Assembly (NCBI GenBank): GCA_015061665.1
Contig: SUWC01000001.1
Location: 35,737-99,736, forward strand
Reading direction: 5' to 3'
Length of the DNA: 64,000 nucleotides
Source of the DNA: Lentisphaerota bacterium
GTDB taxonomy: Bacteria; Verrucomicrobiota; Kiritimatiellia; RFP12; UBA1067
Position 1 is the first letter of the stretch. The number at the start of each line of letters is the position of its first letter. The notes beneath the pieces are model-generated. The model worked only from the letters and a program-made list of their open reading frames with translations, was not told the DNA's origin and searched no databases. A program made the position numbers and the translations under genes. Below, piece by piece: positions 5,499 to 22,387 of this stretch.

Positions 5499-6449
5499 AT
5501 GGTGAATCCTATGCAGTGGAAACTTTCGAGTAGGCTGGATAACCCCCAACTGACGCTGGATATTGAGATATGGTATAATAAGGGGGTGAAAATAATATTT
5601 TTGTTTATTGACGGCGTGGGGATGCGCGAGGCGGCTGCGGACAATCCTGTCAACGAGGAGGTTTGTCCGACGCTAATGCGCCTGATATCCCGCCATGCAA
5701 AGCCGATTGACGCATGTCTCGGCGTGGACGGCCTGCCGCAGAGTGCGACAGGGCAGGCAACAATGTTCACGGGAGTAAACTGTTCCGCTGCCATGGGAAG
5801 GCACTGCGAGGGCTTCCCGGGGCCGTCTCTTCGTCGCATAATAGAGGAGAACAATCTCTTCCTCCAGCTCAAGAAGCGCGGCCTAGCCGTCAGATTTGCG
5901 GATGCATATCTTGTCGATTCGGCTGACGACCTTGCAGCGAGGCGCTTCAAATCGGTTACAACGGTCATGGCGCTCACGACTCCCGAGGTGATAACGACTG
6001 TCGATGACCTCAAGCAAGGTCGGGCACTTATGCAGGACCTGACGCGCGAGACTATCCAGGAGCGGTACCCGGACTGCCGCGTCATATCGCCAAAACGCGC
6101 CGCGGAGGATCTTGCCGAAATAGCGCACGACTATGACTTCACCCTCTACGAGTTTTTCCAAACGGATGTGTCTGGACACTCGATGGACTACGCGCGTGCG
6201 TGCGCAGTGCTTCGGACGTACGACCAGTTTCTGTCGCAGCTGATCCGGCTTGTCGAGATCGAGGGCATAACGCTCGTCATGACGGCCGACCACGGGAACA
6301 TAGAATGCATGACTGAACGCGGGCATACAAGAAGCCCCGTGCCTTTCATTGCATATGGTCCGCGTGAGTCAGACCTGCGAGATCAGGTTGAATCGTTGAT
6401 CGACGTCACCCCCGCGCTGCTGAGGGTTTTCGACAGCGTCGGGAGGTAA
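5499..6449 (+). CDS. Alkaline-phosphatase-superfamily metalloenzyme (cofactor-independent phosphoglycerate mutase / phosphopentomutase-like)
   Basis: IIFLFIDGVG near the N-terminus and LVMTADHGN near the C-terminus are characteristic of the iPGM/DeoB metalloenzyme fold. Start is uncertain: alternatives are GTG near 5585 after AAGGGGG, or ATG at 5624. Confidence 0.55.
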   Translation: MVNPMQWKLSSRLDNPQLTLDIEIWYNKGVKIIFLFIDGVGMREAAADNPVNEEVCPTLMRLISRHAKPIDACLGVDGLPQSATGQATMFTGVNCSAAMGRHCEGFPGPSLRRIIEENNLFLQLKKRGLAVRFADAYLVDSADDLAARRFKSVTTVMALTTPEVITTVDDLKQGRALMQDLTRETIQERYPDCRVISPKRAAEDLAEIAHDYDFTLYEFFQTDVSGHSMDYARACAVLRTYDQFLSQLIRLVEIEGITLVMTADHGNIECMTERGHTRSPVPFIAYGPRESDLRDQVESLIDVTPALLRVFDSVGR

Positions 6450-6477
6450 AACTCGACTGTAAAATATTTTTTAAAAT

Positions 6478-6515
6478 ACCCCCTTGCGCGCAAGGCGGCT
6501 AATATGATATACTAT
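6478..6515 (+). promoter_or_regulatory. Promoter of the tRNA cluster: CCCCCTTGCGC(-35)-N18-TATACT(-10)
   Basis: TTGCGC at 6484-6489 lies inside the perfect palindrome CCTTGCGCGCAAGG. TATACT at 6508-6513. The same architecture recurs at 12988-13017. Confidence 0.6.
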
Positions 6516-6530
6516 TTCTTGTTTTCGATT

Positions 6531-6607
6531 GGGGCTGTAGCTCAACTGGATAGAGCATCAGACTACGAATCTGAGGGTTGTGGGTTCGACTCCCGCCAGC
6601 CCCGCCA
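6531..6607 (+). tRNA. tRNA-Arg (anticodon ACG)
   Basis: GGGGCTGTAGCTCAACTGGATAGAGCATCAGACTACGAATCTGAGGGTTGTGGGTTCGACTCCCGCCAGCCCCGCCA. Cloverleaf with anticodon loop CTACGAA, encoded CCA. Confidence 0.9.
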
Positions 6608-6620
6608 GTCGAAACCAGAT

Positions 6621-6697
<77 letters not shown>

Positions 6698-6732
6698 AAT
6701 TCCGTGAAGATCTGGCTCACGGCGACACACGG

Positions 6733-6809
6733 CGGACCGTAGCGCAGCCTGGTAGCGCGTTTGCTTGGGGTGCAAAAGGTCACGAGTTCAAATCTCGTCG
6801 GTCCGACCA
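6733..6809 (+). tRNA. tRNA-Pro (anticodon GGG)
   Basis: Acceptor CGGACCG/CGGTCCG, anticodon stem TTTGC/GCAAA with loop TTGGGGT, T-loop TTCAAAT, CCA end. Confidence 0.85.
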
Positions 6810-6859
6810 CCTTGCAGAAGGTGATGCGTTGTGTTTGAGGTGCGGATTCGCACAATTAT

Positions 6860-6933
6860 GGTGGGATGGCCGAGCGGTTAGGTAGTGGACTGCAAATCCA
6901 CGTACAGCGGTTCAACTCCGCTTCCCACCTCCA
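6860..6933 (+). tRNA. tRNA-Cys (anticodon GCA)
   Basis: Acceptor GGTGGGA/TCCCACC, anticodon stem GTGGA/TCCAC with loop CTGCAAA, T-loop TTCAACT, CCA end. Confidence 0.85.
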
Positions 6934-7046
6934 TTCAATTCCCTGTCAAAAGTTTTGTCCGTTGTCTGGTCGTACCCATGCGGGTAGGGCACGTGATCAC
7001 GTTAATATGGTAGAATATGGGTGTAGTCAAAACCAAACGGATCATT

Positions 7047-8225
7047 ATGAAGAAGAGCATCATTTTTGCAGCAATGCTTGTGGCGTCCGCCGTTAACGCG
7101 GGGGATGGAGATGGTTCGGCCTCTAGCCGCGACCTTCAGTCCGAGATCGACGCGATCGCCAAGGCTGGCGGCGGTACGCTGCGCCTTGAGGCCGGCACGT
7201 ACAGGACCGGCGCCTTGTTTTTCAAGCCCGGCGTCAACCTTCACCTTGAAAAGGGCGCGACGATAGTCGGCGTGGACGATGCCGCGGGCTATCCGATGTG
7301 CGAGACGCGAATCGAGGGGGAGACGTGCATGTACTACCCCGCGCTCATCAACGCCGACCGCTGCGACGGATTCACCATTACGGGCGAAGGCGTGGTTGAT
7401 GGACACGGAGCCAACACCTGGGAGGATTTCTGGACGAAGCGCGCCGAGGCTCGCAAGACGGGCGCGGATTTCCGCAACAAGACGCTGATGCGCCCGCGCG
7501 TCCTGTACGTGTCGCGCTCGAAGAACGTCGACGTCTCCGGAGTGACGTTCAAGAACTCTAAGTTCTGGACGACTCACTACTATGACTGCGAAGACGTTGT
7601 AGTGCACGACTGCGCAATCATCGCGGACGTGCTGAAGGATTCGAGGGGGAAGGAACTTAAGGGCCCCTCTACGGACGCGATCGACATCGACAAGTGCCGC
7701 CGCTTCACGGTGCGCAACGTCGACATATCCGTCAACGACGACGGCGTTGTCGTGAAGGGCGGGAAGGGTCCCTGGGCGGACGACTACGAAAAGTTCCCGG
7801 GCAACGGACCGTCGGCCGACGTCCTCGTCGAGAACTGCACCTTCCGCTATCCGACGCACAGCGCGCTCACGCTCGGCTCGGAGTGTCCTGCGGCGACCAA
7901 CGTCACGATGCGCGCCTGCAAGATGGACGGATGCGGAAACATGCTCAACCTTAAGATGCGCACCGATACGCCGCAGCACTACGCGAACGTGCTTGTCGAG
8001 GACTGCACGGGAAGCTGCAAGACGTTCCTGCGCGTCCAGTCGTGGTCGCAGTACCACGATGCCCAGGGACGCTCCGCCCCGGAGCTGAAGAGCTACGCGG
8101 ACGGTGTTACGCTCAGGCGAAACGACATCTCCGCGAAGAACGAGAGGGAAATCGTCTGGCGCAGCGACATCTTCGAAATCACAAATCTGGTCCTAGAGGA
8201 CAACAAGATCAGCATTCTCCAATAA
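7047..8225 (+). CDS. Secreted glycoside hydrolase family 28 (polygalacturonase-like, right-handed beta-helix)
   Basis: Signal peptide MKKSIIFAAMLVASAVNA. GH28-type motifs STDAIDID (like NTDGID) and DDGVVVKGG (like GDDCIAIKSG), with a parallel beta-helix repeat pattern. Alternative start ATG at 7017. Confidence 0.75.
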   Translation: MKKSIIFAAMLVASAVNAGDGDGSASSRDLQSEIDAIAKAGGGTLRLEAGTYRTGALFFKPGVNLHLEKGATIVGVDDAAGYPMCETRIEGETCMYYPALINADRCDGFTITGEGVVDGHGANTWEDFWTKRAEARKTGADFRNKTLMRPRVLYVSRSKNVDVSGVTFKNSKFWTTHYYDCEDVVVHDCAIIADVLKDSRGKELKGPSTDAIDIDKCRRFTVRNVDISVNDDGVVVKGGKGPWADDYEKFPGNGPSADVLVENCTFRYPTHSALTLGSECPAATNVTMRACKMDGCGNMLNLKMRTDTPQHYANVLVEDCTGSCKTFLRVQSWSQYHDAQGRSAPELKSYADGVTLRRNDISAKNEREIVWRSDIFEITNLVLEDNKISILQ

Positions 8226-13032: not shown

Positions 13033-13117
13033 GCTCGGGTGGTGAAATTGGCAGACACGCATGCTTGAGGTGCATGTGGAGAGATCCTTGCGGGTTCGAG
13101 TCCCGCCCCGAGCACCA
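13033..13117 (+). tRNA. tRNA-Leu (anticodon GAG)
   Basis: Acceptor GCTCGGG/CCCGAGC, anticodon stem CATGC/GCATG with loop TTGAGGT, long variable arm, T-loop TTCGAGT, CCA end. Confidence 0.85.
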
Positions 13118-14931: not shown

Positions 14932-17609
<2,678 letters not shown>

Positions 17610-17642
17610 CGCAGGGCGCGATTCGCAACGGAAAGGTGAGGC

Positions 17643-18002
17643 ATGGACGAAGACGAGAGATACGTCGACGAGTTCGGCTTCCCCCTGCCGCGTTTCAAGC
17701 CCCTCGACCCGGAGAAGCGCGGACGCCACGAGACATTCGCGTCAGCGGCGAAGGCCGCCCTGACTGAACTGACGACGGTGCACGATCCGTTCTTCGATTC
17801 GCTTGCGGACGTCTGGCGCAAGCTCTTTCCGCGCCTGCCGATCCGCCCTGGCCGCTTCGACGACGGCAAGATCGTCCTTTACGTGAAGAACGCGCCGACG
17901 AGCTTTGCCATGCGTCCGCAGCTCCCGCGCATAAAGAGGGCGCTGTCCGCGCTGCCCAACGCACCCAGGCGCATAGACCTCAGGCTTGAGATACATGCAT
18001 AA
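17643..18002 (+). CDS. DUF721 / DciA-like small protein (tentative)
   Basis: 119 aa. C-terminal KIVLYVKNAPTSFAMRPQLPRIKRALSALPNAPRRIDLRL resembles the DUF721 pattern. SD AAAGGTGAGG before the ATG. Confidence 0.4.
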   Translation: MDEDERYVDEFGFPLPRFKPLDPEKRGRHETFASAAKAALTELTTVHDPFFDSLADVWRKLFPRLPIRPGRFDDGKIVLYVKNAPTSFAMRPQLPRIKRALSALPNAPRRIDLRLEIHA

Positions 18003-18007
18003 AACAA

Positions 18008-18039
18008 GTAAGGCGCGTGGTTTTGACCACGCGCCTTTA
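18008..18039. terminator. Bidirectional hairpin terminator between the convergent DciA-like gene and acpP
   Basis: Perfect 11-bp stem AAGGCGCGTGG / CCACGCGCCTT (18010-18020 and 18027-18037) with loop TTTTGA; U-rich on the acpP side. Confidence 0.6.
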
Positions 18040-18062
18040 CTCATGATTTGGTATGCGACCGC

Positions 18063-18320
18063 TTACTTGGCTTCGTCACCGTAGCCCTTGGACTTGAGGT
18101 AATCGACAACCTTGCCGACCGTCGTGAGCTTTTCGGCGTCCTCCTCGGGGATAGCCGCGCCAAATTCTTCTTCGAACGCCATGATGAGCTCGACCGAGTC
18201 AAGGGAGTCTGCGCCAAGGTCATCGATGAACGACGCCTCGGGCGTGACCTGCTCAGCATTGACGCCGAGCTGCTCGACGATAATCTCTTTCACGCGATCT
18301 TCAAGCTTTCCTGCTGCCAT
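18063..18320 (-). CDS. acpP: Acyl carrier protein
   Basis: 85 aa with the DSLDSVEL phosphopantetheine attachment motif. Confidence 0.95.
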
Positions 18321-18349
18321 TTTGATGTCTCCTTCGTTAAGTGGTTATT

Positions 18350-18395
18350 GATATTGTATCAAATTATCCCCGCAGAGCGCAAGGGGGGGGCTCTG
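18350..18395 (-). promoter_or_regulatory. acpP promoter (minus strand): CCCCCCCTTGCGC-N18-TACAAT
   Basis: Reverse complement of 18353-18382 gives TTGCGC...TACAAT with 18-nt spacing. The -35 lies inside the palindrome GCAGAGC...GCTCTGC. Confidence 0.55.
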
Positions 18396-18417
18396 CGGTC
18401 CTAGAGAACGGACCTGG

Positions 18418-20610
18418 CTACTGCGCCTCCATCAGCCTGACGTCGAACACGCCGCCAGCGAGTCCGCCGTTGGTCGAGGCGAATGTGACGCGGATCTTGC
18501 CGTCCGCGCGCAGGGCTGCGACTTCGGGGGGGACGGGGTACGTCTCGGTGAAGAATTTGCCCCCGTGCCTGCCTTCGAGCTTGACCGTCGCCAGGCGAAC
18601 GCCGTTCGCGAGCACGTCGAAGGCGCGTCCGCGGTCGTCGCCCCAGTAAGTCGCCTCGATCGCGACGTTCTTAGCTCCCTTAGGGTCGAGCGTGTAGGCG
18701 AACCACGAGCCGTGGCGCCAGTGCTTGCCGGAGTGGTAGCCCTTTGCTGTGTTCTCGGAGGTCTGCATGTCGTGCTCGGTCTCGGGCTGCTGCTCGCCGG
18801 GCATGACGCGGTCGCGCGTGCGGCGTTCGCGCTCGCGCTCGGCCTTTGCGGCGGCCTCAAGCGCGGCCTTGCGGGCGACCATCTTTTCGGCGGTCGTGAA
18901 CTCCCAGTATATCTGGTAGCGGCACTCGTGCAGCTTGAAGAAGGGAACGAGGCCCTTCGTGTCGAGCGGCTTGCCGGCCTCGCGGAACTCCACCTTGTCG
19001 GCGTCCACGAGCGGGCCCCACGCGACGTGGCCCATGCGGCTGTCGTCGGCGAAGAGTCCGTCAAGGCGGTCTTTGCCGCAGTCTTTGCCCATTACGATCG
19101 GACCGCGCATCACCGCGCCCCAGTCGCTTCCGTCGGGGAGCATCTCGACATGCCAGTCCATCGGGCGCGACGCCGTGATCTTTGCGCCTTTCTGCCAAGA
19201 GCCCGTGTGCTTTGCGTACTTGTCGCCTTCGCGGACGTAGAGCGTGCCCTTGAAGGGTTTGAGGAACTCAATCGTCGTCTTTCCGCCGTCGGGGAAGTCG
19301 GTCTTCTGCCGCAGGACGCCCCTGAGCTCGGAGTCGATGAAGAGGTTTACGTAGATCTTGTCCTTGCCCGAGCGCGCGTAGATGAAACGACCGTACTTGC
19401 CGGGGTTCTCCATCCCCGTTCCGACGCAGCACCAGAAGCAGTTCGTGGGCGTCGAGTAGACGCGGTAGTGGGCTGGGCGCGTGGGCGTGAAGTAGACGAA
19501 GCCGGGTTTCCGCGTGTTGATGGACGCAAGGAGGTGGTTGTAGAGCGCGCGCTCGTAGAAGGCCGCGTACTCGGGCTTCGGATCGTGCTCGAAGAGCCTC
19601 TCGGTAAGGCGGAGCATGTTGTATGTGTTGCACGTTTCGGGCCCCTGGCGGTCGGCCATGAGCTTCGCGAAGCTGTCGAGGGCGTGGAAGTGCTCGCCGA
19701 CGGAGTTGCCGCCGAAGGCGACGCTGCGGCGCGTGACGATCGTGCGCCACACGAAGTCCGCCGCATCCCAGCGCCTGTCGTCGCCTGAGAGCTGCGCCGT
19801 GCGGGCGAGTCCGACGAACTTCGGGATCTGCGTGTTGGCGTGGTAGCCGGTGAGCCTGTCCTCGTGCCTGTAGAGCGGCTCGAAGACGCGGTTGTGCTCC
19901 CAGCGGCGCGCCGCGTCGATGTACTTGGCGTCGCCCGTGATGGCGTAGACGTCAGCGAACGTCTCGTTCATTCCGCCGAACTCCTGGTCGAGCATGTGCT
20001 GCATCTTGCCGACGTCGAGCTCCGACGTGAGGTCAATCGCCCAGTCGGAGAGCGCGACGAGGACGCTCCTGGCCTGCCTGACGCCGGCGAGTTCGTATGC
20101 GTCGCGAAGTCCGGCGAAGGTCTTGTGGACGTTGTACCACGGCACCCAGTGCTTGAAGATGACGCCGACGTCCCCGGCCTTGATGCTGCTCCACAGCTCC
20201 CGGCCCTTCGGCACGCCGTCGCACCTTCCGTCGCCGTTCGCCTTCTGGCAGCGCGCCAGCTCCGAGACAATGTACTCGAGCCGCTTTTTGAGGTGGCCGT
20301 CGGCGTCGTTGCCCGAGGCGATGAAGTTCGCGAGCGCGCTCATGTAGTGGCCTAGCGTGTGGCCGTCGAGCCCGCAGCTCTCCCAGTTGCCGTAGCTGTC
20401 GGCTTTCTTGGGCAGCCCCGCCTCTCGCAGAAACGGCGCGAGGAGCCTGTCGGGGTCGAGCTCGTCGACATAGCTGAGGCCGGCCTTGACGGCAGGCGTG
20501 AATACGCTGGACTCGGCTAGCCGCACTTCGGAAAGAGGGCACAGCTCGACCTTGTCCCCGGTCGGCGCGACGGACATGACCGCCGCGAAAAGAATGCATA
20601 TCGTGTTCAT
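18418..20610 (-). CDS. Glycoside hydrolase family 127 (DUF1680; beta-L-arabinofuranosidase-like) with extra C-terminal domain
   Basis: Signal-like N-terminus MNTICILFAAVMSVAPT. GH127-type cysteine motifs (CNTYNMLRL, CCVGTGMENPGKYG). Track ORF extended to 20646. Confidence 0.7.
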   Translation of the reverse strand: MNTICILFAAVMSVAPTGDKVELCPLSEVRLAESSVFTPAVKAGLSYVDELDPDRLLAPFLREAGLPKKADSYGNWESCGLDGHTLGHYMSALANFIASGNDADGHLKKRLEYIVSELARCQKANGDGRCDGVPKGRELWSSIKAGDVGVIFKHWVPWYNVHKTFAGLRDAYELAGVRQARSVLVALSDWAIDLTSELDVGKMQHMLDQEFGGMNETFADVYAITGDAKYIDAARRWEHNRVFEPLYRHEDRLTGYHANTQIPKFVGLARTAQLSGDDRRWDAADFVWRTIVTRRSVAFGGNSVGEHFHALDSFAKLMADRQGPETCNTYNMLRLTERLFEHDPKPEYAAFYERALYNHLLASINTRKPGFVYFTPTRPAHYRVYSTPTNCFWCCVGTGMENPGKYGRFIYARSGKDKIYVNLFIDSELRGVLRQKTDFPDGGKTTIEFLKPFKGTLYVREGDKYAKHTGSWQKGAKITASRPMDWHVEMLPDGSDWGAVMRGPIVMGKDCGKDRLDGLFADDSRMGHVAWGPLVDADKVEFREAGKPLDTKGLVPFFKLHECRYQIYWEFTTAEKMVARKAALEAAAKAERERERRTRDRVMPGEQQPETEHDMQTSENTAKGYHSGKHWRHGSWFAYTLDPKGAKNVAIEATYWGDDRGRAFDVLANGVRLATVKLEGRHGGKFFTETYPVPPEVAALRADGKIRVTFASTNGGLAGGVFDVRLMEAQ

Positions 20611-20666
20611 GAAGATATTGTAGCAAAACCAAGGGCGCTGCGCCATTACCCAATCGGGGGGTTACG

Positions 20667-21183
20667 ACCAACGCATTAAAAGCCGATCCTTCCCCTTCGG
20701 GGCCCCTGGATCTTTTTTAATGCGTTGGAAGTGTCTCAGCAACCAGCAGCCAGCAGCGCAGTGTCCAATCCGAATGGTCGTGGCGCGTCTAGTGAGACCC
20801 TAGGACATACTAGGGGCAACAAATCGGCCGCGCCCGATCATCTTTTGTGCGTAGGCATCGAGCCTACGCTCCGATGGCTTTTCCCTGCATGCGGGCCGAG
20901 GCAGTGCTGATGCTCTTGCCGATCATGAGAAGCAGTTCCCGCGACTCGGCCTGCAGCGACTCGACTGCATCGAACCCGCGCGGGCTCGATGCCCGCGCGT
21001 TCACAAAAAAGACGGGCGCGCCCGATGAATGCGCCTTGGACGCATCCTGAAAGTCCAAGATGCGCGCCACGACCGCCCGGATTGGGCGCTGATCGCTGGT
21101 TGTTGGCTGCTGAAACACTTCCAACGCATCAAAAATTCGTTCTACACCGCGTCAGCGGGGAGAAGGAATTTTTGATGCGTTGG
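20667..21183. mobile_element. MITE-like non-autonomous element (about 517 bp) with 45-bp terminal inverted repeats, each capped by an outer hairpin
   Basis: Left: hairpin ACCAACGCATTAAAA...TTTTAATGCGTTGG (20667-20728), then TIR AAGTGTCTCAGCAACCAGCAGCCAGCAGCG. Right: TIR CGCTGGTTGTTGGCTGCTGAAACACTT, then hairpin CCAACGCATCAAAAATTC...GAATTTTTGATGCGTTGG (21121-21183). No credible ORF inside. Internal GGCGCGCCCGAT occurs twice. Confidence 0.55.
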
Positions 21184-21280
21184 CCGTATGGGGGCCTGTC
21201 CGTTTGGGGCGATTTTATGATATAATTCTACACAAGTTGGCTAAATTTATCCAAACAACCCTTAAACGGAGATAATCGAA

Positions 21281-22387
21281 ATGCCAAAGGCATCCTACAA
21301 GGTATCCGACTTCGGAACCACGAAGTACGGCGAGAAGGCCCGCAAGTTCACTCTCAAGGGCGCAGGCGGCGTCATCCTCGAGGTCAGCGACTACGGCGGC
21401 AAGGTCGTCCGCCTTTTCACCCCCGACGCAAAGGGCAAGCTCAAGGACGTCGTCGTCGGATTCGACTCTCCCGAGGGATGGGACAACGGCGACCCCTACT
21501 GGGGCGCGCTGATCGGGCGCTACGGCAACCGCATCGCGAAGGGCCAGTTCAAGATGGACGGCAAGACGTACAAGCTCCCCGCGCTCAACAACGCGCCCGC
21601 GGGCATAGGATGCAACCTCCACGGCGGAGCGCGCGGATGGGACGCGTACGTCTGGGACGCGAAGCCGTTCGTGAAGGGCGACAATGTCGGAGTCGTATTC
21701 ACGCACACCTCGCCCGACGGCGACGAGGGCTTCCCCGGCAAGGTCGAGGTCAAGGTCACCTACACGCTGACGGCGAAGAACGTCTGGCGCGTCGACTACG
21801 AGGCGGTGCCCGACAAGAAGACGCCCATCAACATGACGCAGCACGTCTACTTCAACTTCAAGGGCGAGTCCGGCGGAACGATCGAGGACCACATCCTCAA
21901 GATACCCGCCTCCAAGGTCACGCCCACCGACGCGGGGCAGATTCCGACCGGCAAGCTCGCCAAGGTCGATGGAACCCCGTTCGACTTCCGCAAGGGAATG
22001 CGCATCGGCGAGCGCATCAACGAGAAGAACGAGCAGCTCGAGTTCGGGCGCGGCTACGACCACAACTGGGTGCTCGACAAGGGCGAGATGGCGCTCGGCA
22101 AGAAGGCGAAGGGCAAGATGAACTTCGCGGCCGAGCTCTACTGCCCGCTCAACGGACGCTTCGTGAAGATCTACACTACCGAGCCCTGCATCCAGATGTA
22201 CTCCGCGAACTGGGCGGACTACAACCAGACCGCAAAGGGCGGCGAGCACCTTTCGTTCCGCTGCGGATGTGCGCTCGAGACGCAGCACGCGCCAGACTCC
22301 CCGAACCAGCCCAAGTGGCCGACCACTTTCGTCGAGGCGGGCGAGAAGTACAAGACGACGACCGAATTCCGCTTCGGCGCCAGGTAA
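21281..22387 (+). CDS. galM: Aldose 1-epimerase (galactose mutarotase)
   Basis: 368 aa; mutarotase fold motifs (GYDHNW, YCPLNG...; NLHGG); SD GGAG upstream. Confidence 0.85.
   Translation: MPKASYKVSDFGTTKYGEKARKFTLKGAGGVILEVSDYGGKVVRLFTPDAKGKLKDVVVGFDSPEGWDNGDPYWGALIGRYGNRIAKGQFKMDGKTYKLPALNNAPAGIGCNLHGGARGWDAYVWDAKPFVKGDNVGVVFTHTSPDGDEGFPGKVEVKVTYTLTAKNVWRVDYEAVPDKKTPINMTQHVYFNFKGESGGTIEDHILKIPASKVTPTDAGQIPTGKLAKVDGTPFDFRKGMRIGERINEKNEQLEFGRGYDHNWVLDKGEMALGKKAKGKMNFAAELYCPLNGRFVKIYTTEPCIQMYSANWADYNQTAKGGEHLSFRCGCALETQHAPDSPNQPKWPTTFVEAGEKYKTTTEFRFGAR

Follow-up and report, generated by a model that had tools for sequence, protein, structure and literature searches.

A 526-bp segment at 20663-21188 of the window (the whole 64,000-nucleotide stretch of DNA analysed here, to which positions refer unless a locus is named) is very probably a copy of an ISAs1-family insertion sequence (IS), made non-autonomous by an internal deletion that removed its transposase gene. 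The element lies between a GH127 gene (18418-20646, minus strand; PF07944) and galM, which encodes an aldose 1-epimerase (21281-22387, plus strand; PF01263). Its extent rests on an alignment of the ends of related copies, on the breaks that such copies leave in assemblies, and on a contig, L089, that diverges from the window at the element terminus.

Ends, symmetry and fold of the element

A sequence-only reading had described a hairpin, inverted repeat, body, inverted repeat, hairpin layout of about 517 bp at 20667-21183. All of the sequences that it quoted are present, and both hairpins and the inverted repeat were confirmed. The core of the proposed extent therefore stands, but its ends do not: an alignment of 88 ends places the true termini 5 nt further out, at 20663 and 21188. 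In this alignment, similarity starts exactly at TACGG, the flanks outside it are unrelated, and the boundary reads TACGGCCAACGCAT. The sharpness of this boundary places the hairpins inside the element and thereby fixes the window copy at 20663-21188. Its termini, TACGACC...GGCCGTA, carry one mismatch (TACGA for TACGG).

The element is an imperfect palindrome with a hairpin just inside either terminus, the stems measuring 14-18 bp. The left hairpin (20668-20728), recognised by folding and in the end alignment, is of the L type, found on the four-helix-bundle side of the parent IS described below. Its arms CCAACGCATTAAAA and TTTTAATGCGTTGG (20668-20681 and 20715-20728) are 100% complementary and form a 14-bp outer stem, with a 5-bp inner stem and a CCCC/GGGG tip. 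The right hairpin (21121-21183) has arms at 21121-21143 and 21161-21183 that are 96% complementary, an 18-bp outer stem and an inner CCGC/GCGG stem. Folded as single-stranded DNA, the left hairpin reaches -18.9 kcal/mol (z = -5.8 against shuffles) and the right hairpin -29.9 kcal/mol (z = -10.3), while the whole 531 nt fold with a z of about -15 on either strand; the stability of the hairpins and of the 531-nt folds is far beyond chance.

The best-conserved portion of the inverted repeat is a 41-nt core at 20714-20754 and 21095-21135, 88% complementary, whose left arm contains TTTTTAATGCGTTGGAAGTGTCTCAGCAACCAGCAGCCAGC, a motif found at 78 loci. The repeat had been given a length of 45 bp; an inverted repeat does exist, but its collinear blocks extend about 210 bp into each arm, and the left half and the reverse-complemented right half are about 69% identical in a global alignment across about 230 nt. 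The collinear inverted blocks I1, I2, I8, I5 and I4 share a symmetry centre near 20924.5. Similarly, the internal duplication of GGCGCGCCCGAT noted before is a genuine repeat, but it is really one inverted-repeat block that is itself palindromic.

The left subterminal blocks I2, I8 and I5 (20759-20869) belong to a collinear set that is also present in the full-length copy at locus L051, where blocks I1-I3, I6 and I8 are collinear. They hold a terminator-like ATCGGCCGCGCCCGAT with a T-run (20823-20847) and a hairpin, GCGTAGGC-ATCGA-GCCTACGC (20849-20869), in whose 8-bp stem two compensatory pairs distinguish the left copy from its right-arm twin, as read directly from block I5. The right subterminal region (20973-21120) is of the R type, which lies 3' of the transposase stop in the parent, and consists of mirror-image blocks together with the core repeat arm at 21095-21135.

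These two end types recur throughout the family, with the outer stem in common and the loop different, and the window copy has one of each. Among 17 distinct ends with the L-type hairpin, 96% of cells are paired and two pairs show compensatory changes: one varies between T-A and C-G at the tenth position of the stem, the other, within the inner stem, between GATTC...GAATC and GATCC...GGATC. The R-type hairpin is represented by 12 distinct ends. This lends modest support to the hairpins being conserved as structures, given that the 3' arm is fixed by the search pattern and that the copies are related.

No second copy of the element was found in the 64-kb window. Rfam 15 returned only tRNAs, elsewhere in the window, when the whole window was searched at the gathering threshold, and its best hit in region 20500-21350 at E up to 10 scored 13.7 bits against a gathering score of 219 (E = 8.6). 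The tRNAs comprise four genes within 400 bp (6531-6930, plus strand) and a fifth 6 kb downstream (13033-13114, plus strand).

The parent insertion sequence and the deletion

The longest copy, at L051 (5312-7626 of that locus), measures 2315 bp and contains three ORFs. Its 388-aa ORF (6207-7373) matches the NF033564 model "ISAs1 family transposase" at 2.2e-105 and 352 bits (cut-off 70) over model positions 1-314 of 314, and the 388-389-aa ORFs of L051 and L047 match NF033564, PF13808 and PF01609. A 125-aa ORF (5516-5893, minus strand) matches TIGR02436 at 1.8e-19 and PF05635 at 6.7e-13, the four-helix bundle of the 23S rRNA intervening-sequence (IVS) type, which we take to be the fold of the DGR accessory protein Avd. 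The third, a 106-aa ORF, has no family match. The four-helix-bundle gene and the 106-aa ORF overlap and read in the same direction, both in L051 (5516-6170, minus strand) and in L077 (1728-2382, plus strand).

In this parent layout the transposase reads to one end of the IS, and the four-helix-bundle and 106-aa ORFs read to the other. Each gene unit is then followed by about 200-210 bp of non-coding subterminal repeat, ending in a 60-nt hairpin and the terminus TACGG. The 60-nt hairpin contains two inverted copies of CCAACGCATYAAAA, and a second conserved stem-loop follows each gene.

The parent agrees with the ISAs1 family (ISAs1, IS1358, ISEc1 / H-repeat; NF033564) in that the transposase of the full-length copies spans the whole model, with DDE_Tnp_1_assoc and DDE_Tnp_1, and in that the copies have terminal inverted repeats and target duplications of 9-10 bp. 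The duplications are perfect in three copies: GAACCCCTCC in L051 (10 bp), GGGCTAAAGT in L058 (10 bp) and GAAATCTGG in L077 (9 bp). Of the eight copies compared, L009, L016, L047, L053 and the window copy have none. Members of the family in ISfinder have target duplications of 8-10 bp and, typically, a length of 1.2-1.5 kb with one ORF and terminal repeats of 14-22 bp. The parent described here is larger, at about 2.3 kb with three ORFs, and its repeats form blocks of about 210 bp with a 60-nt hairpin; the window copy, moreover, differs from the family in having no transposase at all. The four-helix-bundle gene and the 106-aa ORF are an unusual passenger or accessory pair for an ISAs1-family IS. 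Although the 125-aa protein matches TIGR02436 and PF05635 like other four-helix-bundle and 23S rRNA intervening-sequence proteins, its gene resides in an IS instead of an rRNA intervening sequence or a DGR, and the window version is a dead fragment of 35 codons.

Among PLSDB plasmids the closest annotated transposases are cyanobacterial members of the ISAs1 family, at about 43% identity, and the element DNA itself matched no plasmid. An ISAs1 copy on a Nostoc plasmid, with a transposase 43% identical, revealed no clear terminal repeats at the sensitivity used, and a literature search on ISAs1 end structure and on IS elements of Kiritimatiellae found nothing specific. By analogy with other DDE transposases, the enzyme would bind the terminal repeats and insert the element with a staggered cut of 9-10 bp.

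Comparison with these longer copies accounts for the window element. By BLAST, it splits into two segments, 1-310 and 300-526, which overlap by 11 nt and match opposite ends of L051, L077 and L053; its right subterminal region aligns to L051 7395-7626, beginning 22 nt past the transposase stop codon at 7373. The window copy lacks about 1.8 kb: all of the transposase gene, the 106-aa ORF and the greater part of the four-helix-bundle gene. The junction, CGACTGCATCG at 20962-20972, was located by comparison with L053, which measures 925 bp and shares 98% identity with the window element. L053 retains the segment that the window lacks, with CGACGGCATCG at its left edge and CGACTGCATCG at its right edge. 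A lone CGACTGCATCG stands in place of this pair in the window copy, and the deletion therefore took place at an 11-bp direct repeat (10/11 identical); the sequence spanning the junction is AGCGACTCGACTGCATCGAACCCG. Slippage or recombination between the near-identical repeats (CGAC[G/T]GCATCG) would have removed the intervening 1.8 kb. Because the deletion joined the two subterminal repeats of the parent, the product has the appearance of one long hairpin-capped palindrome.

Next to the junction, at 20864-20971 on the minus strand, BLASTP reveals the 3' remnant (35 codons plus stop) of the four-helix-bundle (TIGR02436 / PF05635) gene, with 30 of 35 residues (86%) identical to residues 91-125 of the protein encoded by L051 5516-5893 (minus strand). 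The earlier statement that the element contains no credible ORF consequently holds for intact genes and misses this remnant of a real one. In fact, the ORFs of the element reach at most 86 aa and match no Pfam family. The 86-aa ORF (20864-21124, minus strand) is a chimera, in which the four-helix-bundle remnant supplies the last 35 residues and the others come from read-through into the right arm. An 86-aa protein is listed in public gene calls at this position, at L079 3584-3844 and at L089 2023-2283; a look-up of the exact protein for other copies gave no record. A tblastn search with the transposase found no match in the element, and the 64-kb window contains no full-length copy and no transposase gene. 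With both ends intact, the window copy could still serve as a substrate for a transposase supplied in trans by a full-length copy.

Copies across genomes and the question of a MITE

A 20-nt motif, TTTTRATGCGTTGGAAGTGT, at the junction of hairpin and inverted repeat was scanned in one genome per GTDB species. It matches at 78 loci, which answers the copy count that had been proposed as a check; the flanks are unrelated, and nearly all of the loci belong to Kiritimatiellae MAGs from rumen or gut. Three loci without a hairpin (L029, L031 and L056) look like chance matches, judged by their flanks. The others are in MAGs assigned to Kiritimatiellae/Kiritimatiellia, or labelled Lentisphaerae, "uncultured bacterium RUG..." or similar, from rumen and gut samples. 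A single MAG, JAHBAE01 (a k=101 assembly), holds 37 motif loci, most of them no more than about 100 nt from a contig end; by BLAST, its contigs terminate 99-100 nt inside the element, i.e., at k-1, the signature of an assembly-breaking repeat. The ISAs1-family element is abundant, and has very probably proliferated, in rumen and gut Kiritimatiellae.

Multi-copy ends, different flanks, an ISAs1-family transposase in full-length relatives and target duplications in three copies bear out the proposal of a non-autonomous, MITE-like transposable element. The label MITE itself fares less well. Two inverted ends are present at seven loci, with element sizes from 234 to 2315 bp, and the short copies examined have their own junctions: L009 (475 bp), L053 (925 bp), L077 (1429 bp), in which the transposase is internally deleted, and L047 (2004 bp), in which the four-helix-bundle gene is mostly deleted. 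Since the junction differs in each short copy, internal deletions recur in this element family, and "internally deleted IS" is a better name for the window copy than member of an amplified MITE family.

The window copy could nonetheless be a genuine amplified MITE, the exact 526-bp form being multi-copy, mobilised in trans and inserted already miniaturised. We consider this doubtful, though it is the alternative that survives best. Both of its ends are complete, L089 carries a 100% identical copy with a different gene at its right end, which could be a second copy, and miniatures of about 235 bp exist in the same family (L016, and L058 with its perfect 10-bp duplication). More broadly, the window copy resembles bacterial MITEs and internally deleted ISs in being 526 bp long, non-coding and intergenic, in retaining both IS ends, and in having an autonomous partner in related genomes. 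Against amplification stand the separate junctions of every other short copy examined, which differ from what is seen in bacterial MITEs, and the lack of a target duplication at the window copy. The window junction was, in addition, found nowhere else, a weak argument, as the scan of metagenome contigs (0 matches) also failed to return the junction-bearing source contig, L079 and L083.

Some copies have a different organisation. The smaller form of about 235-240 bp (L016 7410-7643; L058 5309-5550) combines hairpin-capped ends with a short palindromic core, GCGTCCAGTGGGAAGCGGACGTGAATCCACACTTCACTGG, and may be the truly amplified MITE of this element family. A hairpin-less version of the GCGTCCAGTGGGAAGCGGACGTGAATCCACACTTCACTGG core, with inverted-repeat-like arms, lies inside the L053 element (about 880-990 in locus coordinates). 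In L035, L044, L064, L067, L078 and L014, AAGTGTCTCAGCAACC is followed by GTATCCCCCGA(C/G)... in place of the usual subterminal repeat; either the interior of these copies differs, or a further element has inserted at a constant position, and L035 has two ends of this type in tandem orientation. We note that L053 itself (JAZQMJ010000347.1) is a 1.9-kb contig binned as "Mailhella sp." with an element 98% identical to Kiritimatiellae copies, and it probably reflects mis-binning, not horizontal transfer.

The GH127/galM locus and its putative promoters

We infer that the element was inserted at the GH127/galM locus. The insertion is present, base for base, in independent assemblies, which cover the right junction (L079, L081-L084) and the left junction (L089-L092), and every assembly recovered for the two exact flanking-protein sequences carries it; it is therefore not an assembly artefact. 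The flanks read ...ATCGGGGGGT on the left and TGGGGGCCTG... on the right. The search for target-site duplications, which had been suggested as a check, thus succeeded in three copies of the family but gave no clean duplication here: the best offset, TCGGGGGGT versus TGGGGGCCT, agrees at 6/9 positions within a G-run and is not significant.

An empty site was not recovered, and the galM relatives P0001, P0003 and P0004 (85-93% protein identity) lie in different neighbourhoods; in L086, an RlmN-like radical-SAM gene (read from its translation) lies upstream of the galM relative. An empty-site pattern scan of metagenome contigs gave 0 matches in a collection that also missed the source contig.

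One assembly departs from this picture. L089 (sample 3300032167) matches window positions 15918-21189 at 100% identity; beyond them, where the window leads into galM, L089 (its positions 1-1962) has the 3' end of a GH95 gene. The two sequences diverge exactly at the element terminus (21188/21189), so that L089 independently confirms the boundary. Either recombination between two copies or an assembler crossover, via a second copy with the same right end beside GH95, produced this contig. The present flanks may accordingly be the product of recombination between copies and not the original insertion site, and the contig suggests that the element is a hotspot of rearrangement or mis-assembly; this would explain the absent duplication. 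As for the order of events, we lean towards the insertion of a longer copy at GH127/galM that then decayed in place; the insertion of an already deleted copy is a possibility to which we give less weight.

The stable fold of the element, its terminator-like hairpins with T-runs and the few compensatory changes in the hairpins would also fit a structured regulatory region native to the divergent promoter of GH127 and galM, such as paired terminators, an attenuator or a long-hairpin RNA. A sequence present once and kept at the same place in relatives had been named as the finding that would point this way; what we find instead are copies of the same sequence at dozens of unrelated loci beside unrelated neighbour genes. 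The element is collinear with the ends of a transposase-bearing IS and holds a gene remnant, it is absent at the galM relatives with 85-93% protein identity, and it has no Rfam match. We therefore regard a regulatory origin as highly improbable.

An inverton, in which a site-specific recombinase flips a promoter segment between inverted repeats, merits equally little credence. The repeats do flank about 340 bp in a divergent intergenic region, but they are the ends of a DDE-transposase IS, the orientation relative to the flanks is the same in all independent assemblies, no promoter-like site lies within the element, and the gene calls reaching about 4 kb to the left and right include no recombinase. 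Least credible of all is an IS200/IS605-type palindrome-associated element, with terminal hairpins that an HUH transposase would read as single-stranded DNA: prominent hairpins adjoin both ends, but the full-length copies encode a DDE ISAs1-family transposase and not TnpA/TnpB, and they have the terminal inverted repeats and 9-10-bp target duplications that IS200/IS605 elements lack. Regulatory RNA, inverton and IS200/IS605-type element are each contradicted by the features tested.

Returning to the internally deleted IS, the sequence-only reading had suggested that it supplies or disrupts promoters of the two neighbouring genes. Extended -10-like boxes, read directly from the sequence, are found on either side: TGCTACAAT (20617-20625, minus strand), the putative promoter of GH127, and TGATATAAT (21218-21226, plus strand), a putative promoter upstream of galM and 29 bp beyond the element end. 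A simple sigma-70 scan found no promoter-like site inside the element. The core promoters of both genes thus likely lie outside it, 29-37 bp from its ends, and the element would sit between two divergent extended -10 promoters, touching neither and acting mainly as 526 bp of hairpin-rich spacer. We note that the GH127 ORF is called from an ATG at 20646, while TGCTACAAT lies 6 nt before an in-frame ATG (20610-20608, minus strand) that opens a signal-peptide-like N-terminus (MNTICILFAAVMSVAP...). The ATG at 20610 and TGCTACAAT point to an alternative start, suggesting a leaderless transcript and a shorter protein.

Each hairpin consists of an A-tract, a G+C stem and a T-tract, and 20696-20710 plus its T-run is flagged as terminator-like. 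This is the layout of a bidirectional terminator, lengthened by another 9 base pairs, and it may block read-through both ways. We favour a role for the hairpins as putative transposase-binding repeats that may also limit transcription into and out of the element.

It is improbable, in our estimate, that these copies represent a distinct ISAs1 subgroup in which the long structured ends and the four-helix-bundle and 106-aa proteins function in transposition or its control, and whose remnants act as bidirectional insulators. Were this so, the Avd-like four-helix-bundle protein might bind hairpin DNA or RNA, and the hairpin-capped remnants left behind would insulate transcription between host genes in both directions.

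In sum, the window element is real but ordinary mobile-DNA debris, and a striking 526-bp palindrome is explained as the remains of an IS and not as a regulatory RNA. For annotation, this means that the spurious 86-aa gene call at 20864-21124 can be removed, and that the element should be marked as probably prone to rearrangement or mis-assembly, since L089 shows an alternative junction. It also identifies a repeat family that fragments the assemblies of rumen Kiritimatiellae MAGs. To the biology of insertion sequences, the element family adds a minor curiosity in its structured ends and its four-helix-bundle passenger.
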